Assembly: GCA_963806155.1 (NCBI GenBank)
Contig: CAWDXC010000011.1
Span: forward strand, 129,819-193,818
DNA: 64,000 nt
Source of the DNA: an uncultured Actinomycetes bacterium
Lineage (GTDB): Bacteria; Actinomycetota; Thermoleophilia; RBG-16-64-13
Reading direction: 5' to 3'
Both the position numbers and the translations under genes were made by a program. Under the pieces are notes generated by a model, which did not search any database, was not told the DNA's origin, and saw only the letters and a program-made list of their open reading frames with translations. Shown piece after piece: positions 1-40,917 of the stretch. Numbering within the stretch: the stretch's first letter is position 1; each line of letters begins with the position of its first letter.

Positions 1-178
1 GCTTTCTACTGCAGCTACCAAGGCCTTGCTTTCGGCTGGGGCTTTTTTCTCCAGGCCCTACGGGGAGAACGCTGACCTAATCATGAACCGAGACGCGGCT
101 ACGGTTGATCTACTAAACAGACTGAAGGGCATCTTCGATCCTAACAAGGTGATGAATCCCGGCAAATTGTGCTGGTAG
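1..178 (+). CDS. FAD-linked oxidase (GlcD-like), C-terminal fragment of a gene starting upstream of the window
   Basis: Frame 2 translates to ...LNRLKGIFDPNKVMNPGKLCW*, the conserved C-terminus of FAD-binding oxidases (GlcD / D-lactate dehydrogenase family). Stop at 176-178. Confidence 0.6.
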   Translation, partial: LSTAATKALLSAGAFFSRPYGENADLIMNRDAATVDLLNRLKGIFDPNKVMNPGKLCW

Positions 179-227
179 ATCTAGACGGTGCGGCAGGTCG
201 TTGCAACGACCATAGGAGAGGATAGAT

Positions 228-1496
228 ATGGAGCTTAAGAAGTACTTGGGCGATACCGAGATGTGCTGTCGCTGTTCCTGCTGCAAGTTCATTCCTCTAC
301 AGAAGATTATGGGAGAAGATTACTCGTACGTGTGTCCGAGCGTGGCCCGCTACAATTTCCACCACTATTCAGGTGGGGGAAGGCTGAACATCATCGACGC
401 CGCCATTAAGCGTGGACCCGATTATTCCGCCATGATCCTTGACTCCATCAAGAACTGCCAGTTGTGCGGGGCTTGCGGCGTTTCCTGTAACTACGCGATG
501 AACATGGAAGTGAATGAGCCGATCCAGGAGTTCCGGATCCAATCGGTGAAGGACGGCCACACGGTGGCGGCTCTAGACCAGGCGGTGAGCGGCCTGCGTA
601 GTCGCAACGCGATGGTGCCCGGCGACGCGGCCAAACGGGGCGATTGGGCACAGGGTCTGAATCTCAAGGACTTCACGGCCGAACCCGTTGAGGTTATCTA
701 CCACGCCGGCTGCCAAACGAGCTTCAACAGGGACCTGTGGAAGCTCGCTCGGGCCACTGCCGGCCTGCTGCGGAAGGCGGGCGTCGACTTCGGGATCGGC
801 GGCGCACGTGAGATCTGCTGCGCGGGCCGGGCCTATCAGATGGGCTACGAGGAGGATTTTCTCGTTCAGGCCCGGGAAAGTATGGAGAACATCCGAAAGT
901 CGGGTGCCAACGTACTGGTGACCGGCTGCGCAGATTGTTACCAGGCCTTCAAGGTCCTCTACGAGAAGATTCACCTGAGGGGCGGCTTGGAGGTCCTCCA
1001 CACCAGTGAGTACTTCGCCCGCCTTCTCGCGGACGGCAGGCTGCAACCGTCGAAGTCGGTGGAGCTGACGGTCACCTATCATGATCCTTGCCGTCTAGGC
1101 CGGTTAGGCGAACCCTGGGTCCACTGGGAAGGCACCAAAATACCCGGCCCCGCGTTCATCTTCGATCCGCAAAGGCCTTATCGCACCGGCGCGCACGGCG
1201 TGTACGAGTCGCCGCGAGACGTGCTCCGCGGCATTCCGGGATTGAGATTGAATGAGATGGTTCGCATCAAAGAGTACGCCTGGTGCTGCGGCTCCGGCGG
1301 GGGAGTGAGCGAAGCGAACCCCGAGTACGCACTGTGGACGGCTGAAGCCCGGATAGACGAAGCGGAGTCGACGGGTGCCGAGGCTTTGGTGACCAGCTGT
1401 CCTTGGTGCGAAAAGATCTTCGATCAAGTGGTCAGGGAGCGCGGCAGCAGTCTTCAGATCCTCGACCTGGTCGAGTTGCTGGACAAGGCCGTCTAG
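228..1496 (+). CDS. Fe-S oxidoreductase with two cysteine-rich CCG motifs (GlcF/LutA/heterodisulfide-reductase-like)
   Basis: ATG at 228 with RBS AGGAGAGG 7 nt upstream. Ferredoxin-like CxxCxxC motifs near the N-terminus (CCRCSCC, CQLCGACGVSC) and CCG-type motifs later (CCAG, CCGSGGG). 422 aa. Confidence 0.75.
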   Translation: MELKKYLGDTEMCCRCSCCKFIPLQKIMGEDYSYVCPSVARYNFHHYSGGGRLNIIDAAIKRGPDYSAMILDSIKNCQLCGACGVSCNYAMNMEVNEPIQEFRIQSVKDGHTVAALDQAVSGLRSRNAMVPGDAAKRGDWAQGLNLKDFTAEPVEVIYHAGCQTSFNRDLWKLARATAGLLRKAGVDFGIGGAREICCAGRAYQMGYEEDFLVQARESMENIRKSGANVLVTGCADCYQAFKVLYEKIHLRGGLEVLHTSEYFARLLADGRLQPSKSVELTVTYHDPCRLGRLGEPWVHWEGTKIPGPAFIFDPQRPYRTGAHGVYESPRDVLRGIPGLRLNEMVRIKEYAWCCGSGGGVSEANPEYALWTAEARIDEAESTGAEALVTSCPWCEKIFDQVVRERGSSLQILDLVELLDKAV

Positions 1497-1515
1497 GAAA
1501 GGAAGCGAGTGGACC

Positions 1516-2991
1516 ATGGCTCTAGCTAGGGACGTATATCGGGAATTCGAGGACGTGGTGGGGCCGGAAAACATCTCCGATGACCCGGCCATCATGCCCG
1601 CTTACCACGGATACAAGTTGGGTGCTGTCGTTTATCCGGCGAATACCAAGGAAGTCCAAGCCCTTGTGCGGCTGTGCAACAAGCACAAGGTTAAGTTCGC
1701 CCCGCTCTCGACCGATTTCACGGGCGTGATCGAGGACGGCACCATCTACCTCGATCTGCGGCGCATGAACCGCATCATCGAGATTAACGAGAAGAACATG
1801 TATGCCGTGGTAGAGCCGTACGTCATTGTCGCGGAGCTGCAGGCGGAGTTGTTCAAGCGGGGCCTGCACTGCAACACCAAGGGATCGGGCACCCAGGGTA
1901 CGGCGATTCTCGCGGGTCACGGCGAAATGGATCAGTCGACCAGCTGCGACGATCGCAACATCCTGGCTGTGGAATGGGTCACACCCCAGGGAGAGCTAGT
2001 CCGCGCGGGTTCGTGGGGATCGGCCGACGAGTGGTTCTGCGGGGACGGACCCGGCCCTTCCCTGAGGTGCGTCATAAACACCGCCATACCTCCTTTGCCG
2101 TCACCGGGGATACTCACAAAGCTCTCGAGGAAGTGCTACCACTGGCCGGGTCCGACCAGCCTTCCGGTCAAGGGCGTCTCGCCACGGTACACGATGAGTG
2201 ACATCCCGCCCAACATGATGGCCGCCTACTTCAGTTTCCCCTCGATCGAGAAGCTGTACGAGGCTGAGCGGAAGATCGGCGAGGCCGAAATCGCCGACAT
2301 GGTCATGGGCTACAATCCGGCGATGATGGCGGCCAACGTCAGCACCACCATCGAAGCAACGGCCGAGGTATACGAACGAATCAAGAAGGAAGTGCAGGGG
2401 CCAGGCTTCTACGTAATGATCTTTGGCATATCGGCCAAAGATTTTGAATACAAGAATAAGGTCCTGGACCTGATAATCAGCGAGACAGAGGGTGAGCGTC
2501 TGTCGCTTCTTCACGAACCGGATATTGAGGGCATGATGATTGCTCACGGCACAAGGGTCAGCAAGTCGATTAGAGAAACATTCAGAACTGGAGGGTTGTT
2601 TACCTCAATTCCTATCATCAGCCAGAGGGACTTGACCATCAGGTGGGCGGTGGGCGCTGGAACAGCCAAGTTGCCATTGATTGAACAAGGTCTGATCCTG
2701 GATGATGGTGGTGGCTTCTTCGGGTGGGGGATTGAGCATGGCCACCTGGGCAAAACAGAGATCTTCTGTGTATATGATCCAACGAACGCCGAGGCAAGAG
2801 CTGCGGTACTGGCGTGGAGAGACGAACAAGGGGGAAGGGCGCTCAGGGAAAGGTACTTTGCCCCCCTACACATTGGCGATCCGGCCCACGTTGGTGCGGA
2901 TCTGAGTGACTTCCATCTATGGAACAAGAAGATCAGGCAGGTGCTAGATCCGAATGATGTCGCCGCGGTGGTGGGTTTGACGGCGACGTAG
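1516..2991 (+). CDS. FAD-binding (PCMH-type) oxidase, GlcD/GlcE-like
   Basis: ATG with RBS GAAAGGAAG. The N-terminal FAD_binding_4-like region (VVYPANTKEVQALVRLCNKHKVKF...) matches this family. Lies directly downstream of the CCG Fe-S protein. Confidence 0.7.
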   Translation: MALARDVYREFEDVVGPENISDDPAIMPAYHGYKLGAVVYPANTKEVQALVRLCNKHKVKFAPLSTDFTGVIEDGTIYLDLRRMNRIIEINEKNMYAVVEPYVIVAELQAELFKRGLHCNTKGSGTQGTAILAGHGEMDQSTSCDDRNILAVEWVTPQGELVRAGSWGSADEWFCGDGPGPSLRCVINTAIPPLPSPGILTKLSRKCYHWPGPTSLPVKGVSPRYTMSDIPPNMMAAYFSFPSIEKLYEAERKIGEAEIADMVMGYNPAMMAANVSTTIEATAEVYERIKKEVQGPGFYVMIFGISAKDFEYKNKVLDLIISETEGERLSLLHEPDIEGMMIAHGTRVSKSIRETFRTGGLFTSIPIISQRDLTIRWAVGAGTAKLPLIEQGLILDDGGGFFGWGIEHGHLGKTEIFCVYDPTNAEARAAVLAWRDEQGGRALRERYFAPLHIGDPAHVGADLSDFHLWNKKIRQVLDPNDVAAVVGLTAT

Positions 2992-3529
2992 TCGATGCGC
3001 GAGAGGCTCAGGCTGGGGTTTGCGTATGGACAGGCGGATTAGCCGTTCGTGGAACGTCTTCTCACACCGGTTTGGCGTGGAATGTGCATCCCCTTCGCCT
3101 CTTTTGAGCGACGAGCTGATAGCGGAGAGCATCTTCGGCTCCGCTGACTTCCGGTACCGCATCTCGAGCAATAGAGACAGGCGGCAGGAGCTGATTCGCG
3201 CTCACATGCGGCTGATCCTAGCCGCACTCCAGGCACGCAATAAAGGCGGGGATATCGAATCTGACTTCCGACGCCTTGACGGACTCGTCGAGCATTTCGT
3301 CACACACATGCCCCCGTGTCCCCCTTCTCTGCAAGTGCCGTACGGGGAAAGCTGAACTCTGCAGAAACAGCGCGCGCCCACGTACTCGCTCGGTCCAGTG
3401 CTGTGTCATATGATATTACATTTGACACTAGTAACCTAGACGTGGCAGTATTTGAACAGCAACACCCAGGCATGCAGTCGTGTTGGACCTGAGTGATCAA
3501 GCGACATATCGTCGATTCGAGAGGGAGAG

Positions 3530-5056
3530 GTGGAGATGGGTGCCGAGGCGAGTAGCAAGACGCCGGATATTCAGGCCGATATCGTCATCGTCGGTGCAGG
3601 GGGCGCAGGCCTGGCGGCTGCCATCACCGCGGCCGAGAAGGGCTGCAATAGCATCATCCTCGTGGAGAAGACCGGGTCCCCCGGTGGTAGCACTGCCATG
3701 GCCCACGACATCTTCGGTGTCGAAAGTCCGGTGCAGGACCGCGCATGGATGGACACCTCGAAGGACGAGATCTTCAATATCCACATGGATTGGACCCACT
3801 GGACCGTGGATCCGCGCATCGTGCGGATGTTCGTCGACCGGGCAGGTGACACCGTTCGGTGGCTTGAAGAAAAAGGGATGGAGTTCCGGCTCTGGCCGAT
3901 GTATCCGAATCAGGCGCCGATCATCCGCCACGCCATCAAGGGGCGGGGAGTCGAGCTGTGCAAGATGCTTCGCAGGAACGTCGAAGAGCTGGGAGGCAAG
4001 ATCCTCACCCGCACAAAGGTGACCAAGATCCTGCGTGCGGATAGCGGTGAGGTGACCGGCATCGTCGCCCAGACTAAAGACGGCGAGATTGCCATCGGGG
4101 CCAAGACGGTCATCATCAGTACCGGTGGATATGGCGCCAACCGCGAGATGCTGAAGAAGTACTACCCGTACTACCACGACACCATGGAGTACGACGGCCC
4201 GCGCAATAACACCGGTGATGGCATCGTTCTGGCCCAAGAGGCGGGCGCGGCTCTTGCGGGTTTGGGTTCGATGAACCTGAGTGGCCCAAGCAGCCTGCCT
4301 CGCTCCGGCAACGACTTCGTGAATGTCGATGGAGCAGTGGATGCCAAGGGTGATCCCCTGAAGATCTGGTTCACTCCATTCTTCCTTGAACCAGACTCCC
4401 TCTGGGTGAACCTGAACGGCAAGCGCTACGTGAACGAGGGCTACATCCTTCAATTCTTCGCCTACGGGCACATCACCGCCCGTCAGCCGCAGGGTCTGTC
4501 CTTCACTCTCTACGATAGCGACGCCATCCGTCGCAAAGAGAAAGAGGGCATCTACAACCAGATGGCGCCCTGCTGGTTCCCGGCCGAGACCTACGTGTGC
4601 CACATCCCGCTGCCCGGACTGGAGCGAGAACTGCGCAGGCCCAACGATCTCATCAAGATCGCCGACACGATCGAGGACCTTGCCGAGTGGATGGGCGTGG
4701 ACCCTGCAATGTTGAAGGCCACCATCGATGAGTACAACGCGGCCTGCGATGCGGGCTATGACGGTGTCTTCGGCAAGGACCGGAAGTACCTGCAACCGCT
4801 GCGGACGCCGCCGTTCTTCGCGCTCAAAGGCCACGTAAACATCTGCGACACCATCGGCGGCATCAAGATTAACGAGAAGATGGAAGTCATCGACGTCGAG
4901 GGCAAGGTCATTCCCGGTCTCTACGCTGCCGGCGTGACCACAGGCGGTTGGGAAGGCGAGACCTACGACTATAACCTCACCGGCCACCTGGTGGGTTTCG
5001 CCGTCAATTCGGGTCGCACTGCCGGCGAGAGTGCGTACGCATACGTGGGGAAGTGA
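3530..5056 (+). CDS. FAD-dependent oxidoreductase, fumarate-reductase / 3-ketosteroid-dehydrogenase-like flavoprotein (FAD_binding_2)
   Basis: Dinucleotide-binding motif DIVIVGAGGAGLAAA, plus GSxxM, ISTGGYGAN and HLxGxxVxNSGRTAGE motifs. GTG at 3530 or ATG at 3536 with RBS GAGGGAGAGG. 508 aa. Confidence 0.8.
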   Translation: MEMGAEASSKTPDIQADIVIVGAGGAGLAAAITAAEKGCNSIILVEKTGSPGGSTAMAHDIFGVESPVQDRAWMDTSKDEIFNIHMDWTHWTVDPRIVRMFVDRAGDTVRWLEEKGMEFRLWPMYPNQAPIIRHAIKGRGVELCKMLRRNVEELGGKILTRTKVTKILRADSGEVTGIVAQTKDGEIAIGAKTVIISTGGYGANREMLKKYYPYYHDTMEYDGPRNNTGDGIVLAQEAGAALAGLGSMNLSGPSSLPRSGNDFVNVDGAVDAKGDPLKIWFTPFFLEPDSLWVNLNGKRYVNEGYILQFFAYGHITARQPQGLSFTLYDSDAIRRKEKEGIYNQMAPCWFPAETYVCHIPLPGLERELRRPNDLIKIADTIEDLAEWMGVDPAMLKATIDEYNAACDAGYDGVFGKDRKYLQPLRTPPFFALKGHVNICDTIGGIKINEKMEVIDVEGKVIPGLYAAGVTTGGWEGETYDYNLTGHLVGFAVNSGRTAGESAYAYVGK

Positions 5057-5082
5057 CTTCTTCATCGACTAAGGGAGCCTAG

Positions 5083-5349
5083 ATGGCATACAAGATCAGC
5101 GACGAGTGCGCGATGTGCGGGATGTGCGTGTGGGAGTGCCCGAACAGCGCGATCACTGAGGGCGACATGATCATGGAGATCGATCCGTACAAGTGCACGG
5201 AGTGCGTGGGCTCGAACCCTTCGCCTCGATGCGTGAAGGAATGCCCGAACGACGCCGTGGTGCTTGACCCTGCCCACGAAGAAACCAAGGAGCAGCTGCT
5301 AGCGAAGTGGGAGGGACTTCATCCTGGTGAGACACCAAAGATCTTCTGA
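5083..5349 (+). CDS. 2[4Fe-4S] ferredoxin (YfhL-like)
   Basis: CAMCGMCVWECP and CTECVGSNPSPRCVKECP cluster motifs. RBS AAGGGAG. 88 aa. Paralog of 8705..8986. Confidence 0.8.
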   Translation: MAYKISDECAMCGMCVWECPNSAITEGDMIMEIDPYKCTECVGSNPSPRCVKECPNDAVVLDPAHEETKEQLLAKWEGLHPGETPKIF

Positions 5350-5597
5350 TTCTTCGTAGTCTCAGTTCTCTAAAAGGGGCGGCAGTTGTAGTTTGCACCG
5401 GCTTGGGTGAGGTTTCAGGCGCCCTGTGGGCCGAGGGAACCCCCAACAATTCGGACACCCCGTTTCTCTGGTCTCTGGTCCATCTGCCTCGGGGAAGTGC
5501 CATCTTCTCAGCTGCTTCCTGTCCGCAGGCCGGTGCAAGTAGCCGCCGCGACCTGTCATTGTGCCGAAGAGTGTTGGCGAACCCCAAGGAGATCAGC

Positions 5598-6381
5598 ATG
5601 AGTTCGACTGGCCAACAACTCTATGCGGAACGCGAGAGACGGTTCAATGACATCGTGGCGCTGAAAAGGCCGGACCGGGTTCCCGTGATTCATCTTGTCA
5701 ATCTCTATTTCCCCACGGCGATCAAGGGGATCTCACATCGGGACGCCGGCTACGACCATGAGCTGCGTACAGATGCATGAGGGAAGCGGATCTCGATTTC
5801 GGCTGGGACTTCGCGGTGCCCAACGCGCTCTTCTCCTTCCTGAGCCTGGAGGCCTTCGGCATCAAACAGATCAAATTGCCGGGAGGCGATCTTTCCGAGG
5901 ATTCGCCCTTTCAGTTCGTCGAGGATGAGTAGCTGCGCGAGGACGAGTACGACGCCTTTCTTGGCGACCCGAACGGTTTCACCATGCGAACGATGTTTCC
6001 GCGGCTGGGGGACAAGCTCGCCCGCCTCGGGCAGGTGCCGCTACCCCCGCTGTTCTGGTTCTCCACCTCGTACCACCTGCCAATCGACGGTAGCAACATG
6101 CTTGCCGCTCCGCCGATGCGGAGCGCTCTTCAGGCGCTACTCGACCTGGCTGAGGCAACCAAAGAGAACAACATCGCTCTGGCAGCGCACATTACGGGAT
6201 GGCGACCCTCGACTACCCCTACGGCTTCGGCGTAGCTGGGGCCGCTGCCTTGGACGTGGTCTCGGATTTTTTCCGAGGCCTGCGGGGCGGCAGCCTCGAC
6301 ATCTACAGAAACCCGGCCAAACTCCTCGCGACCATCGAGCTGATGCACCCGTGCAGCACTCGGGCCGCGGCTACTAAGTAA
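5598..6381 (+). pseudogene. Uroporphyrinogen-decarboxylase-family (URO-D/MtaA-like) gene, disrupted
   Basis: Good start (AAGGAG-N7-ATG at 5598) and a URO-D-like N-terminus MSSTGQQLYAERERRFNDIVALKRPDRVPV. The reading frame then passes through three frames with an in-frame TAG near 5928 (…FQFVEDE*LREDEYDAFLGDPNG…). The C-terminal part (…SDFFRGLRGGSLDIYRNP…) is in a third frame. Confidence 0.45.
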
Positions 6382-6580
6382 AATAGGATATGGATTGAAA
6401 AGGCGCAGTAATTAGGATATCTTGGGGGCGACCGCCTGCAGGTCCTAATGGACGTGGCGGGTTCGACGGCCTGTGGCTCGGGCTTCCCGCCTCGACATCG
6501 CATCGCAAAGCGGCGGGCATTGCGAGCGTCAACGCCAGCGTGGATCGCGCAGGACTGACTGAGCAAGGGAGACCGGAATC

Positions 6581-8101
6581 ATGGATCTTACGGCAACAGG
6601 AAAGAGCCCCGACGTGCGGGCAGACGTAGCCATCATAGGCGGCGGGGGCGCCGGCTTGTCAGCCGCCCTCGCCGCCCTCGAGCTGGGCTCTACGTCGGTC
6701 TTGCTGCTCGAGAAGATGCCCTCTCCAGGCGGGAGTACCGTCATGGCTCACGACATCTTCGGTATCGAAAGTCCTGTGCAGAAACGGGCCTGGTTCAATA
6801 CCTCGCGGGACGAGATCTTCAAGACCCACATGGACTGGACCCACTGGACGGTCAATCCTCGGATCGTTCGCGCCTTTGTCGACAAATCGGGCGACACCAT
6901 CGCCTGGCTCGAGACAATGGGGCTCAGCTTCCGGCTTCTGCCCATGTATCCCAACCAGTCGCCACTCATCCGGCATTCGATCGAAGGGCGGGGGATCAAG
7001 CTGGTGAAGGTCCTGCGCGAGAACGCCGAGGGCCGGGGTTTGAAGCTACTCACCCGGACACGGGCCAAGAAGATCCTACGGGCCCAGAGTGGAGAGGTGG
7101 TCGGCGTGCTGGCCGAGACTGCCAACGGTGAGGTGACCATAGGGGCGAAGACGGTCATCATCGCCACGGGCGGCTACGGAGGCAACCGGGAGATGCTCAA
7201 GAAGTATTATCCTCACTACAAAGAGAGCATGACCTATGACCCGCCCCGTAGCAACACCGGGGACGGCATCACTATGGCCATCGAGGCCGGTGCCGACACC
7301 GCCGGTTTGGGCGCCGTGAACCTGCACGGCCCGGCTTTCTTGCCCCGGTCGGCTGCCGACATGATGGAGATCGACGACGTCTTGGACGCCCACGGCAGCC
7401 CGCTGAAGCTGCCCATCATGATCGCGTCGCTGGAGCCCGACACCATCTGGGTGAACAAACTGGGCGAGCGCTTCACCGACGAGGGTCGCATCCTTCAGTT
7501 CTTCGCCTACGGTTACGCCGTAGTCAGGCAGCCCGAAGGCCTTGCCTACACGCTTTACGACAGCGACCTGGTGCAACAAAAGGAGAAGGAGGGCGTCTAC
7601 TGCCAGCCGGCGCCTGGGTGGCACCCGCATGACACGTACTGCGCCCATTTCCCCTTGCCCGGTTTCGAACGGGAGATGCGCAAAGGTAATGACAAGATCA
7701 AGATTGCAGATTCCTGGGACGAGATCGCAGTGTGGATGGGAGCGGATCCCCCCGCGCTCCGAGCCACCGTGAACGAATACAACGTCGCCTGCGATCAGGG
7801 CCACGACCCGGTCTTCAACAAAGACCGTCAGTATCTGCGTCCGCTGCGCACGCCGCCCTTCTACGCGATCGAAGGGCACGCCATGATCGCCGATACCGTT
7901 GGCGGTATCAAGATCAACGAAAAGATGGAAGTCATTGACACCGCGGGCCGCGTCATCCCCGGACTACTCGCGGCCGGCACCACCACCGGAGAGTGGGAGG
8001 CCGAGGCCTACGACTACCACCTGACTGGTCACTTGGTGGGCTTTGCCATCAACTCCGGCCGCATCGCCGGGGAGACCGCCATGGGCTACTTGGCGGGCTA
8101 G
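6581..8101 (+). CDS. FAD-dependent oxidoreductase, paralog of 3530..5056 (~60% identity by eye)
   Basis: DVAIIGGGGAGLSAA motif and the same conserved blocks as 3530..5056. RBS GGGAGACC. 506 aa. Confidence 0.8.
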   Translation: MDLTATGKSPDVRADVAIIGGGGAGLSAALAALELGSTSVLLLEKMPSPGGSTVMAHDIFGIESPVQKRAWFNTSRDEIFKTHMDWTHWTVNPRIVRAFVDKSGDTIAWLETMGLSFRLLPMYPNQSPLIRHSIEGRGIKLVKVLRENAEGRGLKLLTRTRAKKILRAQSGEVVGVLAETANGEVTIGAKTVIIATGGYGGNREMLKKYYPHYKESMTYDPPRSNTGDGITMAIEAGADTAGLGAVNLHGPAFLPRSAADMMEIDDVLDAHGSPLKLPIMIASLEPDTIWVNKLGERFTDEGRILQFFAYGYAVVRQPEGLAYTLYDSDLVQQKEKEGVYCQPAPGWHPHDTYCAHFPLPGFEREMRKGNDKIKIADSWDEIAVWMGADPPALRATVNEYNVACDQGHDPVFNKDRQYLRPLRTPPFYAIEGHAMIADTVGGIKINEKMEVIDTAGRVIPGLLAAGTTTGEWEAEAYDYHLTGHLVGFAINSGRIAGETAMGYLAG

Positions 8102-8157
8102 ACGCGCGAGAACATCACTAGTTAAAGATACTCACATCTGACTCGGGGGTGGTTTGC

Positions 8158-8625
8158 ATGGAGCTCACATATGACAGCATGGTCAAGTTCATGGAGGAGT
8201 ACTTCCCCGTATACAGCGAATACGGCCAGTTTCCAGAGACCGTGAACCGCATGAAGGACTTCTTCGCGCCGGACCTGGAATTCACCGGGTACATGGGCTT
8301 TCCCGAAGGGCTGCTGGTCTACCCGGACCGCAAGTCATTCCTGGACTTCGACATTTCGCATCCCTGGGCTATCGAGAGACTGACTCCTCTCGACATGATG
8401 GTTGACGAGAGACGGAGAATAGTATTCGTGATAATCAAGTTCGAATTCGTGGACACGGAGACGGGAAAGGTCCTGGTCGAGGACCTGGGGGTGACCCAGT
8501 ACCACCTGGCGCTGGACGAAAACGACACCATAAAGATCAAGAAGCTGATCTTCTTCCCACAGCGGCTCGTGCCTGGAGCGAAGACCGGCAGCGACGTCTT
8601 TGGGTTCGATCATCGGCAGGGCTGA
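8158..8625 (+). CDS. Hypothetical small protein, possibly NTF2/SnoaL-like fold
   Basis: ATG at 8158 with RBS GGGGGTGG. 155 aa, no recognisable motifs. Inserted between the flavoprotein and ferredoxin of the second module. Confidence 0.35.
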   Translation: MELTYDSMVKFMEEYFPVYSEYGQFPETVNRMKDFFAPDLEFTGYMGFPEGLLVYPDRKSFLDFDISHPWAIERLTPLDMMVDERRRIVFVIIKFEFVDTETGKVLVEDLGVTQYHLALDENDTIKIKKLIFFPQRLVPGAKTGSDVFGFDHRQG

Positions 8626-8704
8626 CACGCAGACTGGTCGTAACTGTCCCCGGCCTCCTCAGATGAGGCAGGGGCGATCGACTGAGGCAGGAGAGGAACA
8701 AACC

Positions 8705-8986
8705 ATGGCTTACATGATTACCGATGACTGCATAATGTGTGGGCTGTGCGCATGGGAATGCCAGAACGAGGCGATCACTGAGGGTGATGGGAAGTTCGTG
8801 ATCGACCCTGACAGATGCTCGGAGTGCGTGGGCGCTGCGCCCGCACCGAAATGCGTGAACGAGTGCACGACGGGCGCCACCGTCCCAGACCCCTCTCGCC
8901 AGGAGACCCGGGAGCAGCTGCTCGCCAAGTGGCAGGCTCTTCACCCAGGCAAGACTCCGAGGACCTTCAACGGGACAGGGGCATAG
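8705..8986 (+). CDS. 2[4Fe-4S] ferredoxin (YfhL-like), paralog of 5083..5349
   Basis: CIMCGLCAWECQ and CSECVGAAPAPKCVNECT motifs. ATG at 8705 with RBS GGAGAGGAAC. The six-frame ORF 8600..8986 carries an N-terminal extension that lacks an RBS. Confidence 0.8.
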   Translation: MAYMITDDCIMCGLCAWECQNEAITEGDGKFVIDPDRCSECVGAAPAPKCVNECTTGATVPDPSRQETREQLLAKWQALHPGKTPRTFNGTGA

Positions 8987-8990
8987 CCGA

Positions 8991-11615
8991 ATGCCTGAAT
9001 CCAGCGGGCGGCCCCCACGCGAGGCCGGAGAGCAGACCCAGGTTCGCAACATCAGCTGGGTTGGTCCGCCGTCGGGCGCCAACGCCTCCATGGTGGACGT
9101 GAAGGACGGCAAGATCGTCCGCATCCGTCCCGCCCGCTACTACGAGCAGTACACGAGAGAAGAGGTCAAGCCCTGGGTGATGCACGCCCGCGGCCAGACC
9201 TTCGAGCCCAGCAACAAGAGCCTCATCCCGCCACTCAGCCTCGCCTACAAAAAGCGCGTGTTCTCGCCGGGCCGGGTGCGCTATCCGCTCAAGCGCGTCG
9301 ACTTCGATCCCACGGGCGCGCCGGGCTCCACCGGCTCGGGCGGCCGCAATGCCCAGAACCGCGGGGTCAGCAAGTATGAGCGCATCTCCTGGGATAAGGC
9401 GCTCGACATCATCGCCGCCGAGATGCTGCGGGTCAAGAAGACCTACGGGTCGACTGCGATCTTCAGCCAGTCTGACTGCCACGGCGAGACCAAAGTGGTG
9501 CATGGCTCACATGGAGCTATGCGTAAGCTGCTGACGATGTTCGGCGGCTACACCCTTCAGTCCCGCGACCCCGATAGTTGGGAAGGCTGGTGGTGGGGAG
9601 CCAAGCACGTCTGGGGGTGCGAACCGGTCGGACAGCAAATGCCGCAAGTCAATGTGGTTTATGACATAGCCAAGCATACTGAGCTCCTGCTCTTCTGGGG
9701 ATGCGATCAAGAGACCACGCCCTGGGGTTGGGGTGGGCAGTTGCCCAGCCGGCTCAGCTTCTGGTGGACGGACCTTGGCATCAAGCAGATCTACATTGCT
9801 CCTGACCTCAACTATGCTGCCGCTGTCCATGCCGACAAGTGGATCCCCATCCTCCCCAACACCGACGCCGCCCTCTACCTGGCTATCGCGTACGAGTGGT
9901 TCAAGAACGGCACCTACGACAAGGAGTACCTCGAGACCCGCGCCTACGGCGTGGATGAGTTCGAGGACTATGTCATGGGCCGGGAGGACGGCCAGGCCAA
10001 AACGGCCGAATGGGCCGCGCCCATCACCGGGGTGCCGGCCCGCATCATCAAAGCGCTGGCCGCCGAGTGGGCTTTCAAGCGCACGACGGTGGCGATCGGC
10101 AACGGGGGGCCGGGCATCCGCGGCCCCTACGCCACCGAGCCGGCCCGCCTGCAGGCGCTCTGCCTCGCCATGCAGGGTCTGGGCAAACCGGGCTGCCACC
10201 AGGCGAAGATGATTGAGTGGTCCTTGCTCGGTGATCCGGGCAGTCTCTCGTCCCCGAATCCGGTCGTCATGTCCAACATGATGCCCGCCTACCGGGGGAG
10301 TCACCCAGGCGTCACCAATCATCCTTCTTTCATTCCAAAGAGCCTGGTGCCAAAAGCCCTTCTCGAGGGACAGATCGACTGGTATGGGTGCGAGGCTGAG
10401 TTCGCTTCGCGCGAGGACCAGTTCGTTCACTACCAGTACCCGGCAGAAGGCTGCTCAAAAATCCACATGATCTGGACAGACTCACCATCGTGGATCACCT
10501 GCTGGAACTGCGGGAACGATTATGTCAAGGCCGTCCGGACTCCAGATATCGAGTTCATGCTGGCCCAGCATCCCTGGCTGGAGAACGACTGCCTCTTCGC
10601 CGACATCATCCTGCCCGTCAACACCATGATGGAAGAGGACGACATCGGTGACGATGCGTTCAGCGGCCAGGTCAGCCTCGTATTCGCTGCAGATCGGGCG
10701 ATCGAGTCCTTGGGCGAGTCGGTCAGCGACTACGAGGTGGTCTGCAAGATCGCCGAGCGGCTGGGCATGCTGGAGGAATACACGGAAGGGAAGACAGTAT
10801 CCGAGTGGATCAGATTCGGGTATGAGGCGAGTGGCATAGCGGAGCGCGTCAGCTGGGATGAATTCCGGAAGAAGGGTTACTACGCGATTGAAACCGACCC
10901 CGATTGGGAGAAGCGCCCCGCCGGCCTCGTCAAGTTCTACGAAGACCCCGAGAACAACCCGCTCAGCACCCCCACCGGCAAGATTGAGTTCTGCTCGACA
11001 GGTCTGGCTGAGCACTTCCCCAACGACGAGGAGCGGCCCCCGGTGCCCCATTGGATCCCGGAGGGGGTGTCTCACCAGGAGACATTAGGGACCGAGCGCT
11101 CGAAGAAGTATCCTCTACTGGTGATGAGTAACCATCCCCGTTGGGGAGTGCACTCCCAGCACGACGACGTCACCTGGCTCCGGGAGATCGAGACCTGCAA
11201 GGTGAAGGGGCCCGACGGGTACCTGTACCACCCCCTGTGGATGAATCCCGCTGACGCGACGACACGGGGGATCGAGCACGGGGACGTAGTGGCCCTCTTC
11301 AATGAGCGGGGCACCGTCTTGGCCGGGGCCTACCTCACCCAGCGCATCATGCCGGGAGCGGTAGGCATCGACCACGGAGCCAAGTACGATCCCATCGCCG
11401 TCGGGGAGACCGACCGTGGTGGCGCCATCAACACCATCGTGCCCCGCAATGTCACCTCCAAGAACGCCTGCGGCCATGCCGTCTCCGGCTTCTTGGCCGA
11501 GGTAAAGAAGGCCGACCTGGCAGCGCTCAAGGCGAAGTATCCCGAAGCCTTCAGCCGGGAGTGTCACATCACCGCCGGGCCTTGCCTCGCCGGCTTCACC
11601 GAGGGAGGTACCTGA
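8991..11615 (+). CDS. Molybdopterin (bis-MGD) oxidoreductase of the pyrogallol-phloroglucinol transhydroxylase large-subunit (AthL) / resorcinol-hydroxylase family
   Basis: 874 aa. There is no N-terminal Cys cluster, which fits AthL-type enzymes. Long conserved blocks are shared with the paralog at 46433..49012 (HNPDSWEGW.WG, MQGLGKPG, CTNFERWDI, YPL..SPHPR.S.H). The start is 4 nt after the ferredoxin stop, suggesting translational coupling. Confidence 0.8.
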   Translation: MPESSGRPPREAGEQTQVRNISWVGPPSGANASMVDVKDGKIVRIRPARYYEQYTREEVKPWVMHARGQTFEPSNKSLIPPLSLAYKKRVFSPGRVRYPLKRVDFDPTGAPGSTGSGGRNAQNRGVSKYERISWDKALDIIAAEMLRVKKTYGSTAIFSQSDCHGETKVVHGSHGAMRKLLTMFGGYTLQSRDPDSWEGWWWGAKHVWGCEPVGQQMPQVNVVYDIAKHTELLLFWGCDQETTPWGWGGQLPSRLSFWWTDLGIKQIYIAPDLNYAAAVHADKWIPILPNTDAALYLAIAYEWFKNGTYDKEYLETRAYGVDEFEDYVMGREDGQAKTAEWAAPITGVPARIIKALAAEWAFKRTTVAIGNGGPGIRGPYATEPARLQALCLAMQGLGKPGCHQAKMIEWSLLGDPGSLSSPNPVVMSNMMPAYRGSHPGVTNHPSFIPKSLVPKALLEGQIDWYGCEAEFASREDQFVHYQYPAEGCSKIHMIWTDSPSWITCWNCGNDYVKAVRTPDIEFMLAQHPWLENDCLFADIILPVNTMMEEDDIGDDAFSGQVSLVFAADRAIESLGESVSDYEVVCKIAERLGMLEEYTEGKTVSEWIRFGYEASGIAERVSWDEFRKKGYYAIETDPDWEKRPAGLVKFYEDPENNPLSTPTGKIEFCSTGLAEHFPNDEERPPVPHWIPEGVSHQETLGTERSKKYPLLVMSNHPRWGVHSQHDDVTWLREIETCKVKGPDGYLYHPLWMNPADATTRGIEHGDVVALFNERGTVLAGAYLTQRIMPGAVGIDHGAKYDPIAVGETDRGGAINTIVPRNVTSKNACGHAVSGFLAEVKKADLAALKAKYPEAFSRECHITAGPCLAGFTEGGT

Positions 11616-11675
11616 TAGGCAGGGTACTAGTGATCGATCCCGCTATCTGCCACCAGCTGGGAGACGGGACAGAAG

Positions 11676-12047: not shown

Positions 12048-13493
12048 ATGGACGAAGAGCGTAGGATATGCAGCAGGCGGGAGTTTCTTCAGCTCGCAGG
12101 TATCGCGGGCGCGAGTTTGGGGCTCGCCGGAGGTTTGGGGGGGGTGCTATCCGCGTGTGGCGGAGAAGAGACGACGACCACGGCCAGTTCCAGTACGGGA
12201 AGTACGGGAGGTGGGACCCAGACGACTGCGGCGGAGAGTACGACCACGTCCGTCAGTGCGACAACTTCGGTGTCCACGTCGGGTGAGGCCGGCCGGACGC
12301 TGAAGATCGGCATGGTTACACCGACCACGGGGGCTCTTGCGCCGTTTGCCCTATACGATGACTGGGCGGTCAAACACCTGGGGGGAGCCCTCAAGGACGG
12401 GTTGGTGTGCGCCGACGGCAAAGTGCGCCAGATCGAAGTCATCAAAAAAGATACCCAATCAGACTCCAACCGGTCGGCCACAATCACCGGCGACCTCATT
12501 CAGAACGACAATGTCGACGTGGTCGTCAGTTCGGGCGCTCCTGACACCACCAGCCCCTCGGCCGACGTAGCCGAGTCCCTGGGTTGTCCGAGCATAAGCT
12601 CGGCCGGACCCTGGCAGGCTTTCTACTTCGACCGCAAGCCACCGGAAGGGGGCTTCAAATGGACCTACGGATTCCTGATCGGGTCGGAGCAGACCATCCT
12701 GAACTTCTCCGTGATGTTCGACCAGGTCCCCAACAATAAAGTAGTAGGTATGTTGCTCCCCAACGATGCCGATGCCCATGGCTGGATGGCCGAAAACGCC
12801 GCCCCGGCTGTATTTAAGGAGAAGGGCTACACCCTGGTCCTGTCTGACTGGTACACGCCGGGAACGGAGGACTTCACCAGCATCATCAGCCTCTTCAAGA
12901 GCGAAGGGTGCGAGATCGTGTGCGGCACCAACACCGCGCCCGATTTCACCAACTTCTGGAAGCAGGCCTACCAACAGGGCTACCAACCCAAGCTCGTCAG
13001 CACCGGTAAGGCCCTCCTCTTTCCGCAAACCTTGGACGCTATAGGCGATATCGCCGACGGTCTTCTGGGCGAAATCGGTTGGGATCGCACGTACCCTTAC
13101 AAAGATTCGCTCACCGGCCAGACATCGGAAGAGCTGTGGCAGGAAATCGAGGCCGACACAGGTATCCAGCCCGGGCCGGCCAGCACGGGCATGTATGCCT
13201 CTCTCGAATGGGTTATAGACGCCTGCAGACGGGCGACGAACCCCGAAGACAAGAACGCATTCATCGAGGCCCTCAAGACCACCAACAACACGTTCGTCTG
13301 CGGCAAGCTCGACATGACCGCGCCTATGGAGCCCGACTGGCATCCCGTCCCTAACGTCTACAAGATGGCGTTCGCCGGAGGCCAATGGCGTCTCTCCAAC
13401 GGCGGCAAATACAAGTTCGAACTGCATGTGTGCGCCGCGGTAACGTGCCCGGGTCTGGAAGTCAAAGACCAGGTCGTGCCTATGGCCTACTAG
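12048..13493 (+). CDS. ABC transporter substrate-binding lipoprotein, Liv/branched-chain-amino-acid-type (Peripla_BP_6-like)
   Basis: Tat-like RREFLQLAG motif and a lipobox LSAC, followed by a Thr/Ser-rich linker. ATG at 12048. The ORF-track start at 12000 is TTG. Confidence 0.8.
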   Translation: MDEERRICSRREFLQLAGIAGASLGLAGGLGGVLSACGGEETTTTASSSTGSTGGGTQTTAAESTTTSVSATTSVSTSGEAGRTLKIGMVTPTTGALAPFALYDDWAVKHLGGALKDGLVCADGKVRQIEVIKKDTQSDSNRSATITGDLIQNDNVDVVVSSGAPDTTSPSADVAESLGCPSISSAGPWQAFYFDRKPPEGGFKWTYGFLIGSEQTILNFSVMFDQVPNNKVVGMLLPNDADAHGWMAENAAPAVFKEKGYTLVLSDWYTPGTEDFTSIISLFKSEGCEIVCGTNTAPDFTNFWKQAYQQGYQPKLVSTGKALLFPQTLDAIGDIADGLLGEIGWDRTYPYKDSLTGQTSEELWQEIEADTGIQPGPASTGMYASLEWVIDACRRATNPEDKNAFIEALKTTNNTFVCGKLDMTAPMEPDWHPVPNVYKMAFAGGQWRLSNGGKYKFELHVCAAVTCPGLEVKDQVVPMAY

Positions 13494-13601: not shown

Positions 13602-13966
13602 GCTTGCTGGTCACTAGGGACGTCGAGCCTGTGCGCGGGAGATGCAGCTTGAACCGGCCCACCTGGCGTCTCGGGGTTCATCTCGGCGCTTCCGGTATTC
13701 GAATATACTCTACTGTTTGATACAACGTTCTAGAAACGCTAGTATGAGTAGCATGATTCGGCCCGGCGAGTTGCCAGCACTTCAAGGCGTAGGCGGTGAA
13801 TGGTGCGCCGCTCAGCCCGAGGCGAAAGCTGAGCGGCCGCCGCAGTCGCTGATGGCGATAGGAGGCACCGTCTTTCTAGTCGGGTGGAGGATTCTTCTTC
13901 GCTGACGGTATGGTTGGTCGTGCCGCGACTCGGCCGGCTGGTTCGTAATGTCGCTGAGGTTTGAGA

Positions 13967-14920
13967 ATGGTACGCGTATTAAGTCTGAGGGAACTCGAGA
14001 GAGTGAGCGGCGAGCCACGCTCCACCATCTATTACTACCTCGGCCGTGGCTTGCTTCCCAAGCCACAGAAGACCGCATCTGGCCGCTCGCTCTACTCCGA
14101 GGATCACCTCAACTTGTTGCTCGAGATCGCCGCGTTGAAGAGTTCAGGGCTGTCGCTCTTCGAGATTGAGCGGCATCTGCAGCATAAAGTCACCCGCGTT
14201 GACCAGGCGAGCGTCGACCTAGCCTCACAGGAGCACAAGCGGCTCCACAACCACATTCTTGCCGTAGCAGCCGATGAGTTCTTCACGAAGGGTTACAAAG
14301 GAACGCACGTCAACGACATCATTCATAGACTTGGAATCACCGTTACTGTCTTCTACACCCACTTCCCAAGCAAGCATGCTCTGTTGGGAGAGTGTGTCGT
14401 GGCACTGGTCGATTGGAGCAACGAGTACGTCGAATATCAGCGCCCCCTGATTCACGATTCCATCGATGAACTCCTGTGGTCTCTGTTCGCGCAATTCCGC
14501 GTGTTTCAGCTTGGTTCAGCTGCGCGGGCAGTGCTCGAGGTGGAGGGGCCGAGGAAAGAGGGCAGCCTCCAGCGAAGCCTGGAAGCAGCTCATGCGAGCA
14601 TCGTCGATCGAATCACGAGAGTGGTACGCGAATTCACTGTCGCGCGAGATGGGTCGTCCGAGGTTGCGCCCGAACTCATCGCTGAGATGATTTTTGCCGC
14701 GTCAGACCCACTATTCCGTTTTTCATCACAGGGGCAGGATCGGAGGGCACTCATACAGGCAAACCTCTATGTTATTCTGTCGATCCTTCTCGCCCTCAGC
14801 GGGCGGGCGGACATCGATGCCGAAATGCGGCGCTACGAGAAGTTGGCGGACTATATGTCGGCCCATATGCCTCCTCTGCCGCCGGTCCTCGAATTGCAGG
14901 CGGACTTCTCCAGCTCGTGA
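13967..14920 (+). CDS. Transcriptional regulator with an N-terminal MerR-type HTH fused to a TetR-type HTH and ligand-binding domain
   Basis: Residues 1-70 (LSLRELERVSGEPRSTIYYYLGRGLLPKPQKTASGRSLYSEDHLNLLLEIAALKSSGLSLFEI) fit the MerR consensus. Residues ~85-140 (ILAVAADEFFTKGYKGTHVNDIIHRLGITVTVFYTHFPSKHALL) fit the TetR_N consensus. ATG at 13967 with RBS GAGGT. Confidence 0.75.
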   Translation: MVRVLSLRELERVSGEPRSTIYYYLGRGLLPKPQKTASGRSLYSEDHLNLLLEIAALKSSGLSLFEIERHLQHKVTRVDQASVDLASQEHKRLHNHILAVAADEFFTKGYKGTHVNDIIHRLGITVTVFYTHFPSKHALLGECVVALVDWSNEYVEYQRPLIHDSIDELLWSLFAQFRVFQLGSAARAVLEVEGPRKEGSLQRSLEAAHASIVDRITRVVREFTVARDGSSEVAPELIAEMIFAASDPLFRFSSQGQDRRALIQANLYVILSILLALSGRADIDAEMRRYEKLADYMSAHMPPLPPVLELQADFSSS

Positions 14921-15131
14921 TGAACGATCCCCGGTGCGCCGCGCCTTCGCGCGTCGACACACGGCGCTTCCAACCGCTCGCTCGACCGTGTCGTGCCCAA
15001 AGCGACAAGCCCACATACCATACGGCCTGGTCACATCAAGGCTCTCGATCTATTCCCCCGGTTCGCTGCGTGACGAGGGTGGGGATTGAAGCTCGTTGAA
15101 TCAGAACCGCGAGAGACTAGGAGGGGCCACC

Positions 15132-19694: not shown

Positions 19695-19744
19695 ACAGCG
19701 AGGATTTCATGTCGGATGTGCTGAACGAGGAGCAGTCAGATGCG

Positions 19745-33443: not shown

Positions 33444-33488
33444 ACACGAACGCCACCAAGTGACACGGGCAAGAGCCCGATCGATCCG

Positions 33489-40781: not shown

Positions 40782-40917
40782 ACTGATCTCCTTGCTCTCG
40801 GACCTCGTTATCTGGCAGTCGACACAAACCAACGCATCGACCGGCGATCCACCCCCGCGGTGATTGCCCGCCCGCGTACTGTTCCTCGAACTCCATCCGC
40901 CTGACGCTCCAACCCAG

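Follow-up and report, generated by a model that had tools for sequence, protein, structure and literature searches.

What biochemical purpose may be served by a group of genes in which a flavin adenine dinucleotide (FAD) flavoprotein and a ferredoxin are encoded side by side, twice over, in the company of an AthL-like molybdoenzyme and of genes reminiscent of GlcD and GlcF? This question is raised by the beginning of a 64,000-nt stretch of DNA (hereafter the window) from an uncultured Actinomycetes bacterium. All positions given below are those of the window and the analysis focuses on its first ~16 kb, in which all genes lie on the plus strand and all of the eleven long open reading frames (ORFs) are intact. 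The features listed in the original prediction, made from the sequence alone, were each found where they had been placed, with identities between the paired genes slightly above its figures.

Comparative analysis of this island, which comes from a probably anaerobic soil Actinomycetota genome, suggests that it carries a real and widespread candidate module for anaerobic phenolic or hydroaromatic metabolism. The module is composed of an FAD flavoprotein, a small NTF2-fold protein and a YfhL-type 2[4Fe-4S] ferredoxin. Copy 2 (A2, NTF2, Fd2) is complete and leads directly into the AthL-type gene and then the gene of a solute-binding protein; copy 1 (A1, Fd1) lacks the NTF2 gene and stands behind a three-gene FAD/Fe-S(CCG)/FAD dehydrogenase, here referred to as the trio. 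The gene content, paralogy, conservation, selection, folds and loss of the fumarate-reductase residues described below were observed directly.

Conservation of the module in related loci

A total of 103 related loci were collected, and the counts given here use the 37 in which the flavoprotein gene is flanked by 1.5 kb or more on either side. No partner of the flavoprotein family is better conserved than the NTF2-fold protein: 27 of the 37 well-flanked loci, and all seven of the actinobacterial clade, have an NTF2/SnoaL-like gene no more than 5 kb from the flavoprotein. In the actinobacterial clade this gene is on the same strand and immediately downstream, and in the Acidobacteriota it is upstream in divergent orientation. 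The ferredoxin gene, where present, comes right after the NTF2 gene (L001, L018, L019, L100, L101). An AthL-like gene adjoins the module in L001 (twice), L012, L020, L026, L100 and L101, all of the actinobacterial clade, and the trio is found near the flavoprotein in Actinomycetota (L009, L018, L100-L103), in Dehalococcoidales metagenome-assembled genomes (MAGs; L006, L010) and on the metagenome contig L032. The trio, or a related pair of FAD_binding_4 and CCG genes, accompanies the flavoprotein on several metagenome contigs as well. Thus the examination of synteny in MAGs that the original prediction had proposed reveals a conserved linkage of both the trio and the molybdoenzyme with the flavoprotein. 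A second flavoprotein gene occurs within 8 kb in one of the 37 well-flanked loci; L001, which lies outside this set, has two of them ~4 kb apart, and the MAG that holds L001 and L009 (MFD02979.bin.1.202) carries at least three flavoprotein paralogs.

Recurrent neighbours of the flavoprotein include UbiD decarboxylases, short-chain dehydrogenases/reductases (SDR), old-yellow-enzyme (OYE)-type enoate reductase, aldehyde:ferredoxin oxidoreductase (AOR), cupins, TRAP and ABC transporters, hydantoinase-like enzymes, and URO-D and B12-binding methyltransferase genes; hydantoinase-like genes lie directly 3' of the flavoprotein in L042, L052 and L055. Ferredoxin-reducing 2-oxoacid oxidoreductases are encoded nearby in the window, L009 and L103. 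Further occurrences of the module come from bacteria of oxygen-free soils, peat and sediments.

The flavoproteins

A1 (3530..5056, 508 aa) and A2 (6581..8101, 506 aa) are cytoplasmic proteins with a single FAD_binding_2 domain (PF00890, E ~1e-48 for each), no added domain and no signal peptide. They are 64% identical across 504 aa without a gap; the predicted value of ~60% was somewhat low, and the paralogy it expressed is real. The GC content at third codon positions (GC3) is 0.79-0.82 in A1, A2 and the molybdoenzyme gene and resembles that of other long genes of the window. An antisense ORF of 522 codons (3497-5065, minus strand) spans all of A1 and is regarded as a by-product of the high GC content and not as a gene, because the homology lies on the plus strand and its GC3 is 0.59 against 0.79 in A1.

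The flavoproteins had been predicted to be fumarate-reductase/KstD-like, and PF00890 and the fold matches confirm their membership of this superfamily, the best Foldseek matches being urocanate reductase, Fcc3, delta4-(5alpha)-KSTD, KstD and cyclohexanone dehydrogenase (TM 0.6-0.72). Membership of a family was defined as a score at or above the curated NCBIfam cut-off, and A1 and A2 fall outside all of the characterised clades, each of their NCBIfam matches being below its cut-off. The highest-scoring curated family for both is the vinylphenol reductase VprA (NF053717), with 283 bits for A1 and 258 for A2 against a cut-off of 600 in a full-length alignment. Matches to the flavocytochrome c/fumarate reductase model TIGR01813 (217 and 203 bits against 285), the fumarate reductase model NF005064 (185 and 169 against 542), the TcuA model (180 against 369) and the KstD models NF009478, NF005882 and NF009479 (155, 115 and 103 for A1 against 789, 788 and 793) are weaker still, the NCBIfam KstD models overall giving 74-155 bits with A1 and A2 against cut-offs of 788-793.

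VprA of Lactiplantibacillus plantarum reduces a C=C conjugated to a phenol ring and stands alone beside a LysR regulator (PMC10295242). It is a single-domain cytoplasmic FAD_binding_2 protein of ~480 aa with which A1 and A2 align end to end; unlike them, it has no NTF2-like, ferredoxin, CCG or molybdoenzyme partners, and the two remain below its cut-off. The best sequence matches are Fcc3, Ifc3, Osm1 and UrdA (E 1e-38 to 1e-55, TM 0.6-0.7), with which the FAD-binding and C-terminal regions align, whereas the cap domain (residues 250-370) is loosely aligned and a haem or FMN domain is missing from A1 and A2. KstD, delta4-(5alpha)-KSTD and cyclohexanone dehydrogenase share the fold (TM 0.69-0.72) and a chemistry at a C=C by a carbonyl, and the C-terminal 120 aa of the flavoproteins are similar to the KSTD structure 4at0 (E 1e-26 to 1e-34). 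The KstD-type enzymes differ in using quinone or artificial acceptors, in place of the dedicated ferredoxin present here.

Mapping of the catalytic residues of Fcc3 on the flavoprotein family shows that five of the six positions are replaced. His365 is retained as H251, but in the profile alignment the catalytic acid Arg402 corresponds to Leu307, the proton relay pair Glu378/Arg381 reads Ala/Leu in the consensus of the 34-sequence family profile, His504 (in HHTMGG) is Asp440 (in CDTIGG) and Arg545 is Asn482. Because Arg402, Glu378/Arg381, His504 and Arg545 are all replaced, the flavoproteins are considered not to be fumarate or urocanate reductases, and the family possesses a remodelled active site of its own. 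Its invariant residues include H251, E287, W292, N294, R299, E303, D440, E475, E477, Y479 and H486, and A1 and A2 retain all ~130 invariant columns of the 34-sequence alignment. The family gives 1631 matches at E ≤0.001 among only 8000 scored candidates, and homologs with more than 50% identity occur in MAGs of the Actinomycetota, Acidobacteriota and Dehalococcoidales obtained from soil, peat and a sulfidic spring; many of the homologs are labelled 'fumarate reductase flavoprotein subunit' by JGI.

The ferredoxins and the NTF2-fold protein

Fd1 (5083..5349, 88 aa) and Fd2 (8705..8986, 93 aa, its true start being Met 8705 within the ORF 8600-8986) are paralogous, as had been predicted, with 61% identity and the same 2[4Fe-4S] Cys spacing; eight Cys occur at positions 9, 12, 15, 19, 38, 41, 50 and 54 (CxxCxxCxxxC and CxxCx8CxxxC). 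With the YfhL-type model NF033683 (cut-off 86 bits), Fd1 passes at 93.5 bits and Fd2, at 85.5, is short by 0.5. Orthologs of Fd1 in L018 and L001 are 81-91% identical, and the ortholog of Fd2 in L100 is 88% identical.

The ORF 8158..8625, which lies between A2 and Fd2, is genuine, since an identical 155-aa protein is present in a public sequence collection. Its AlphaFold model is an NTF2-like cone (pLDDT 93.5), and Foldseek matches it to SdnG, Trt14, limonene epoxide hydrolase, SnoaL cyclases and KSI-like proteins at E ~4e-6, with 221 PDB matches at E ≤1e-3, all of them NTF2-like among the 50 matches listed. No Pfam match was obtained for the protein of the window, and some of its homologs carry PF14534. 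Invariant residues of the family include Tyr5, Tyr15, Gln24, Asp39, His68, Glu73, Asp83 and Tyr115. A catalytic triad of the KSI kind was considered by eye against a KSI sequence; the invariant Asp39 resembles the F-A-x-D motif common in NTF2 proteins more than it does the catalytic base, and no claim is made.

The original prediction had regarded this small ORF as an insertion into the second pair. The comparison points the other way, the ORF being an ancestral partner lost from pair 1: orthologs of pair 1 in L001, L018 and L019 have the order flavoprotein, NTF2, ferredoxin, whereas only 26 bp separate A1 and Fd1 in the window. As the pair-1 orthologs keep the NTF2 gene between flavoprotein and ferredoxin, it is concluded that pair 1 lost the gene and that pair 2 did not gain it.

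The molybdoenzyme

The gene 8991..11615 encodes the alpha subunit of an AthL-like bis-MGD molybdoenzyme (Mo1, 874 aa) with the AhtL-like first domain PF21423 (39.1 bits against a cut-off of 27), PF00384 and PF01568. It matches AthL (4v4c) with 467 bits and E 1e-138 over residues 33-842, a full-length homology that upholds the predicted AthL-like identity. Like AthL of Pelobacter acidigallici, Mo1 is cytoplasmic, with neither a signal peptide nor an N-terminal Fe-S motif, in keeping with an alpha subunit that has no Fe-S cluster. The AthL residues Ser175, Asp174 and His144 are conserved as S196, D195 and H164, of which Ser175 is the Mo ligand. The residues that we take to contact substrate or co-substrate in AthL are not conserved, Arg153 being Ser173 in Mo1 and Tyr404 falling in a gap of a poorly aligned stretch.

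Mo1 also differs from the AthL/AthS system in the loss of the beta subunit. The segment 11616..11843 is a remnant of an AthS-like Fe-S beta-subunit gene, as judged by comparison with the orthologous loci L100 and L101, in which an AthS-like beta subunit with a CarboxypepD_reg-like domain is present. The start codon ATG has become ATA and ~600 bp encoding the Fe-S domain are deleted. As only the CarboxypepD_reg-like C-terminal domain survives, Mo1 is without a beta subunit in this region of the genome, and a beta-subunit Fe-S domain was found nowhere in the 64-kb window.

A second AthL-like molybdoenzyme gene (46433-49012, minus strand; 859 aa, 36% identical to Mo1, strong PF21423) has no beta-subunit gene nearby either. 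Its surroundings include genes for an aryl-acid-type AMP ligase (44055-45737), a zinc alcohol dehydrogenase (49258-50637) and a three-subunit 2-oxoacid:ferredoxin oxidoreductase (40918-44012).

The FAD/Fe-S/FAD trio

The first gene of the trio is clipped by the start of the window, which holds its 3' end (1..175, coding bases 2-175), and encodes a FAD_binding_4/FAD-oxidase_C protein. Its frame-2 translation terminates in DPNKVMNPGKLCW followed by the stop codon, and the complete protein has 488 aa on a Logan contig; orthologs were identified in L009, L018, L100, L101, L102, L103, L006 and L010. The second gene (228..1496, 422 aa) encodes a soluble Fe-S protein with Fer4_8 and two CCG domains of the HdrD/GlcF type (PF02754, E 5e-26), with orthologs 50-57% identical in the same gene order in other phyla, and the third (1516..2991, 491 aa) a second FAD_binding_4 flavoprotein (PF01565, E 8e-20) with a divergent C-terminal half.

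The trio had been taken for GlcD/GlcF-like oxidase genes. This holds for the domains and for the gene architecture, which is GlcDEF-like in combining two FAD_binding_4 proteins with a Fer4_8/CCG protein, though the order is D-F-E and the model scores are far below the Glc cut-offs (35-51 bits against 568 for GlcD, 19-26 against 284 for GlcE and 18 against 333 for GlcF). The CCG protein is likewise far under the cut-offs of the TfrB, GlcF and GlpC models, its best NCBIfam match being TfrB. The nearest structures of both FAD_binding_4 proteins are of the type of p-cresol methylhydroxylase (PCMH) and the vanillyl-alcohol (VAO) and eugenol (EUGO) oxidases. The second protein matches PCMH/VAO-type structures best (E 4e-12), followed by D-lactate dehydrogenase and glycolate oxidase, and a profile of the first subunit matches the 8s7* entries with 88 bits, PCMH with 80 (full length) and EUGO with 76-78, with D-lactate dehydrogenase (70 bits) and glycolate oxidase (52 bits) both below these. 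The 8s7* entries are deposited only as 'Oxidoreductase', and we take them to be of the VAO/PCMH type from their GEYRTH motif. In VAO the phenolate is bound by the triad Tyr108, Tyr503 and Arg504. Of this triad the trio keeps only the Arg, as the invariant R456; Tyr503 is replaced by an invariant Ser, so that the Tyr-Arg pair reads Ser-Arg in a weak C-terminal alignment, and the column of Tyr108 varies among Y, H and R in the trio family. A further difference from PCMH and VAO is the Fe-S partner of the CCG type in place of a cytochrome c.

History of the region

The original prediction had described the two flavoprotein-ferredoxin pairs as a tandem duplication. They are indeed paralogous, but they are old paralogs and not products of local duplication. 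A neighbour-joining tree of ~120 family members places A1 beside P0001, P0002 and P0004 (76-81% identical) and A2 beside P0037, P0030 and P0033, and dozens of sequences branch between the two. Both pairs have orthologs in other MAGs that are closer to them (81-88%) than they are to each other. The A1 ortholog in L018 is 80% identical, and P0037, the A2 ortholog in L100, 88%. A recent tandem duplication was considered and ruled out, in view of the separate subclades, the saturated dS between A1 and A2 (1.29) and the absence of flanking repeats or near-identical DNA; the only long repeats are the genes themselves (70-75%). L100 is colinear with positions 6536-11653 of the window at 84.5% nucleotide identity and holds the A2 module alone, with an integrase before it and with the beta subunit, two solute-binding proteins and FAD/CCG genes after it. 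The island is thus a mosaic of two old paralogous copies of the module, and the A1 and A2 subclades, the comparison with L100 and the gene remnants indicate that the two were joined by rearrangement, leaving three scars.

Besides the beta-subunit remnant described above, one scar lies between the two pairs, where a decayed URO-D-like pseudogene had been predicted, and is confirmed by three reading frames, a stop codon and the loss of the C-terminal part. Comparison by tblastn with two intact homologs shows that the pseudogene (5598..6351), of a corrinoid methyltransferase-I-like URO-D family, matches residues 1-252 of intact 418-aa PF01208 proteins at 63-70% identity, with residues 1-57, 58-199 and 197-252 each in a frame of its own owing to two frameshifts, near 5768 and near 6190, and with one in-frame stop where the homologs have Tyr. 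The intact homologs that carry PF01208 are 54-67% identical. Residues 253-418 are missing, and because these ~166 C-terminal codons are gone the pseudogene has no Pfam or NCBIfam match. An assembly artefact was ruled out, since an independent Logan contig has the same four fragments and the other long ORFs of the window are intact. Among solved structures the closest is CdmB (E 3.7e-5); built on a UroD-like TIM barrel, this corrinoid-dependent methyltransferase I is kin to the methyltransferases of aryl O-demethylases (PMC13222342). URO-D genes were ruled out as conserved neighbours, being present in only one of the 103 loci (L102). On L104 (ERZ25039554:contig_21518) an intact homolog of the pseudogene adjoins a split B12-binding corrinoid protein and a gene of the DAPG/phloretin-hydrolase family; an NMO-family flavoprotein, a Peripla_BP_6 ABC system and CoA-transferase genes occur there too, a setting that looks like a polyphenol and O-demethylation context.

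The remaining scar is the ORF 3020..3355 (111 codons), which precedes A1. It has no Pfam or NCBIfam match and was identified by comparison with a paralog as the C-terminal part of a second MerR+TetR regulator, its residues 32-106 being 41% identical (E 1.6e-15) to residues 235-312 of the regulator encoded at 13961..14920; it is a relic of the rearrangement by which the two modules came together. The intact regulator has an N-terminal MerR_1 domain (PF13411) followed by TetR_N (PF00440), an unusual pair of DNA-binding domains, and its orthologs lie beside the cluster in L018 (12741-13679), L019 and L101 (2791-3807). Traces of mobile elements, namely a serine recombinase (17694-18776), a MerR/HTH_17 ORF (18933-19694) and a transposase-HTH ORF (19456-20562, minus strand), lie between catabolic blocks and fit the mosaic structure.

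Relaxed selection on the paralogs, which the original prediction had named as a possible ground for its rejection, was not seen. The dN/dS values against orthologs are ~0.1 throughout (A1 0.10, Fd1 0.10, A2 0.12, NTF2 0.07, Fd2 0.07, Mo1 0.10 and the solute-binding protein 0.11), and the intact genes tested are under strong purifying selection, with the qualification that pairwise dN/dS is blind to very recent relaxation.

Probable function and alternative readings

In the flavoprotein superfamily, FADH- donates a hydride to a C=C that a carbonyl, carboxyl or phenol group activates, or the reaction runs in reverse. The electrons normally reach these enzymes singly, from Fe-S, haem or FMN partners, and the dedicated ferredoxin, with its constant place behind the NTF2 gene, is the evident candidate for this part here. 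The flavoprotein of the module would reduce (or, in reverse, introduce) a C=C conjugated to a carbonyl or phenol, in a substrate of the enone or quinone-methide type and not fumarate, and the ferredoxin would carry single electrons to or from its FAD, replacing the Fe-S, haem or FMN partners of the superfamily. The NTF2-fold protein may isomerise or dehydrate the substrate, in analogy to the tautomerisations and dehydrations of the NTF2-fold enzymes KSI, scytalone dehydratase and BaiE, or may be a structural small subunit. The molybdoenzyme would add, move or remove a ring hydroxyl, and the trio would oxidise a neighbouring intermediate, or feed or exchange electrons through its CCG clusters. 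As a whole the set would take part in the anaerobic breakdown of plant phenolic or hydroaromatic compounds, with uptake by the adjacent ABC system.

We hold, with about as much confidence as doubt, that the module is a cytoplasmic ferredoxin-linked C=C reductase or desaturase with an NTF2-like helper, acting in anaerobic phenolic or hydroaromatic catabolism; the direction of its reaction, the class of its substrate and its partners in electron exchange are what we infer. It probably acts on plant-derived phenolic or ring compounds. In favour of this reading, VprA is the nearest curated family and the fold matches are all C=C oxidoreductases. A phenolic context is suggested by the AthL homolog, which keeps the Mo-ligand Ser, by the FAD_binding_4 proteins, which both match 4-alkylphenol oxidoreductases best, and by related loci with UbiD, SDR, OYE-type reductase, AOR and URO-D/B12 genes and the DAPG/phloretin-hydrolase gene by the homolog of the pseudogene.

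Several points weigh against it. Each of the family-level matches is below its curated cut-off, and the sequence itself points to no particular substrate. The phenolic theme leans on weak similarity and on neighbours, as one-third of the phenolate triad, the Arg, is kept. A molybdoenzyme gene is near the flavoprotein in only 4 of the 37 loci and a ferredoxin gene in 5, both associations being limited to the actinobacterial clade, and in other clades its partners are instead cupin, TRAP-transporter, hydantoinase or M24-peptidase-like genes, neighbours that could point to non-aromatic substrates. In this window A1 has lost its NTF2 gene and Mo1 its beta subunit, so that this copy may work only in part. 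In addition, several MAG loci carry frameshifts, probably sequencing errors (e.g. L001 4674-6202, L012 10218-11496), and gene calls in loci of this type are unreliable because the genes are split by them.

Among the alternatives, the one with the most weight, though distinctly less probable, is that the flavoprotein acts in the oxidative direction, as a desaturase of the kind of KstD, cyclohexanone dehydrogenase, TcuA or ChcC, and puts a double bond into an alicyclic ketone or acid, with the electrons leaving via the ferredoxin and the CCG protein as they do via TcuB for TcuA. The folds of KstD (TM 0.72) and cyclohexanone dehydrogenase (0.69) are as close as those of the reductases, NCBIfam matches to TcuA (180 bits), KstD and ChcC1/ChcC2 exist below the cut-offs, and sets of SDR, NTF2-like protein and flavoprotein in L006 and L102 resemble modules of alicyclic or steroid-type oxidation. 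CCG proteins are known partners of FAD_binding_2 dehydrogenases (TcuB, SdhE, TfrB), and TfrB is the best NCBIfam match of the CCG protein here. However, a YfhL-type ferredoxin is a low-potential carrier and a poor acceptor for C-C desaturation (~0 mV), the cluster has no gene for a membrane subunit that would reduce quinone, and the organisms look strictly anaerobic, with 2-oxoacid:ferredoxin oxidoreductase, AOR and corrinoid systems, reductive sinks being their usual need. Improbable, by comparison, is a ferredoxin-dependent dearomatising reductase of the resorcinol- or hydroxyhydroquinone-reductase type, acting on the keto tautomer of meta-dihydroxy phenols, into which the AthL-like enzyme and Amidohydro_2/UbiD decarboxylases would funnel resorcylates, gallate and pyrogallol. 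The AthL family includes resorcinol and dihydroxybenzoate hydroxylases; resorcinol reductase is an FAD protein with subunits of ~50 kDa, and we know of no gene assigned to it. The flavoprotein is a 55-kDa FAD protein with its own ferredoxin, Amidohydro_2 genes of the gamma-resorcylate decarboxylase superfamily occur at 15096 and 22759, and UbiD genes occur in L018. Resorcinol reductase is described as dependent on ferredoxin and as active on the keto tautomer (PMC10470551), and the full-text literature searched does no more than mention it. Yet no ring-cleavage hydrolase or beta-oxidation genes were recognised beside the module, an Amidohydro_2 gene is near the flavoprotein in 1 of 37 loci with no decarboxylase model matched, the trio is left unexplained, and the argument is one by analogy.

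The three remnants (3020-3355, 5598-6351, 11616-11843), the loss of the NTF2 gene from pair 1, the recombinase and transposase-like ORF at 17.7-20.6 kb and the integrase beside the module in L100 would be expected if the pairs were surplus copies in a degrading region shuffled by mobile elements, with no working pathway. This we regard as quite improbable: none of the eleven long ORFs in 1-16 kb is broken, dN/dS stays at 0.07-0.12, A1 and A2 keep the family-invariant residues, GC3 of A1, A2 and the molybdoenzyme is normal for the window, and the scars are limited to accessory genes. A very recent relaxation would nevertheless be invisible to pairwise dN/dS, and a partial loss of function in pair 1 or Mo1 is possible. 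Least probable of all, and very unlikely indeed, is that the annotations hold at face value, i.e. an ordinary fumarate reductase flavoprotein, GlcDEF and pyrogallol-phloroglucinol transhydroxylase, as the fumarate reductase names given by JGI, the D/F/E-like architecture and the AthL match of E 1e-138 would have it. Five of the six fumarate-reductase residues are replaced, the Glc models give 18-51 bits against 284-568, Tyr404 and Arg153 of AthL are not conserved, the beta subunit is deleted, and partners of the SdhB/C type are missing.

An extension of the proposed reductase function would make the flavoprotein/NTF2/YfhL set a new ferredoxin-driven reductase of phenolic rings or side chains, coupled via ferredoxin to the AthL-type enzyme and to the PCMH-like dehydrogenase. 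It is put forward as a long shot, and within it the set could be the never-cloned dearomatising reductase of the resorcinol or hydroxyhydroquinone type.

Comparison with known multi-enzyme systems

All the parts belong to known superfamilies and the novelty is in their combination. The linkage of a remodelled fumarate-reductase-like clade, an NTF2 partner, a dedicated ferredoxin and the trio, joined in one phylum by AthL/AthS, appears undescribed. No description of the cluster was found in a full-text literature search that left out most subscription papers, in agreement with the original prediction, to which the combination was not recognisable as a described pathway. The papers on AthL systems found by this search report no flavoprotein/NTF2/ferredoxin operon, and to our knowledge none has been reported with the described AthL and resorcinol/3,5-dihydroxybenzoate hydroxylase systems.

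The logic of bile acid 7-dehydroxylation (Bai) employs an SDR, an OYE-type flavoenzyme, the NTF2-fold dehydratase BaiE and FAD reductases. Similarity to it is seen in the kinds of parts, NTF2/SnoaL-like, SDR, Oxidored_FMN + Pyr_redox_2 and FAD_binding_2 proteins being encoded in L006, L010 and L102; the flavoprotein core differs in having no CoA-transferase or ligase genes, and the habitats are soil and sediment. The gut Eggerthellaceae belong to the same phylum and likewise hold many paralogous fumarate-reductase-like flavoproteins and DMSO-reductase-family enzymes per genome. Their reductases are respiratory and mostly secreted or membrane-linked, whereas the proteins of the window have no signal peptides and use a soluble ferredoxin. 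Flavin and molybdopterin reductases of these gut bacteria act on plant phenolics, including cinnamates, resveratrol and catechols (bioRxiv 10.1101/2022.12.26.521950; see also PMC7028382).

Adjacent and other genes of the window

The beta-subunit remnant is followed by the gene of a Tat-lipoprotein solute-binding protein of an ABC importer (12048..13493; Peripla_BP_6, PF13458, E 3e-37; Tat-signal match), with the N-terminus SRREFLQ...LSAC and with orthologs that come after the module in L001 and L100. A search for its ligand via solved structures gave only weak, uninformative matches to amino-acid binders. Promoter and terminator scans of the region showed no excess over the shuffled expectation. 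Downstream of the MerR+TetR regulator, the gene 15096..16352 encodes an Amidohydro_2 protein of the decarboxylase/hydrolase superfamily (PF04909, E 2e-11), with no NCBIfam match, and a second Amidohydro_2 gene is present at 22759; the Amidohydro_2 proteins matched no decarboxylase model. Membership of the gene 15096-16352 in the unit is uncertain, and Amidohydro_2 was ruled out as a core member, since just one of the 37 well-flanked loci has such a gene in the vicinity of the flavoprotein.

Farther along the window, a hydantoinase A/B pair (31359-35282) has caprolactamase as its best NCBIfam match, with 540 and 229 bits against a cut-off of 1000. A Peptidase_S15/PepX_C hydrolase of the cocaine-esterase-like kind (39006-40985, minus strand) could be an esterase of phenolic esters, and another adjoins the flavoprotein/NTF2 pair in L102 (12276-14039, minus strand). 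A LivHMGF-type ABC transporter with its solute-binding protein lies within 50784-60398 and has a GC content of 0.49-0.52 against ~0.60 elsewhere; it is followed by HydA, HydB and Acetone_carb_G genes, a trio like that of acetone/acetophenone carboxylase.

Implications

Few enzyme systems are known for the degradation of phenolic plant carbon without oxygen in peat and wet soils. The anoxic decay of such carbon bears on the 'enzyme latch' debate (PMC10470551). The flavoprotein family described here is abundant and is routinely mis-annotated as fumarate reductase, and as a caution such genes should not be counted as fumarate respiration or glycolate oxidation in metagenome surveys. The module offers a defined unit of four to eight genes for expression and assay. 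If the ferredoxin-driven coupling of the flavoprotein set to the AthL-type enzyme and the PCMH-like dehydrogenase were true, electron-releasing hydroxylation and electron-consuming C=C reduction would be balanced in one soluble system, and phenolic carbon of peat, wetland soils and sediments would have a widespread route that needs no oxygen.

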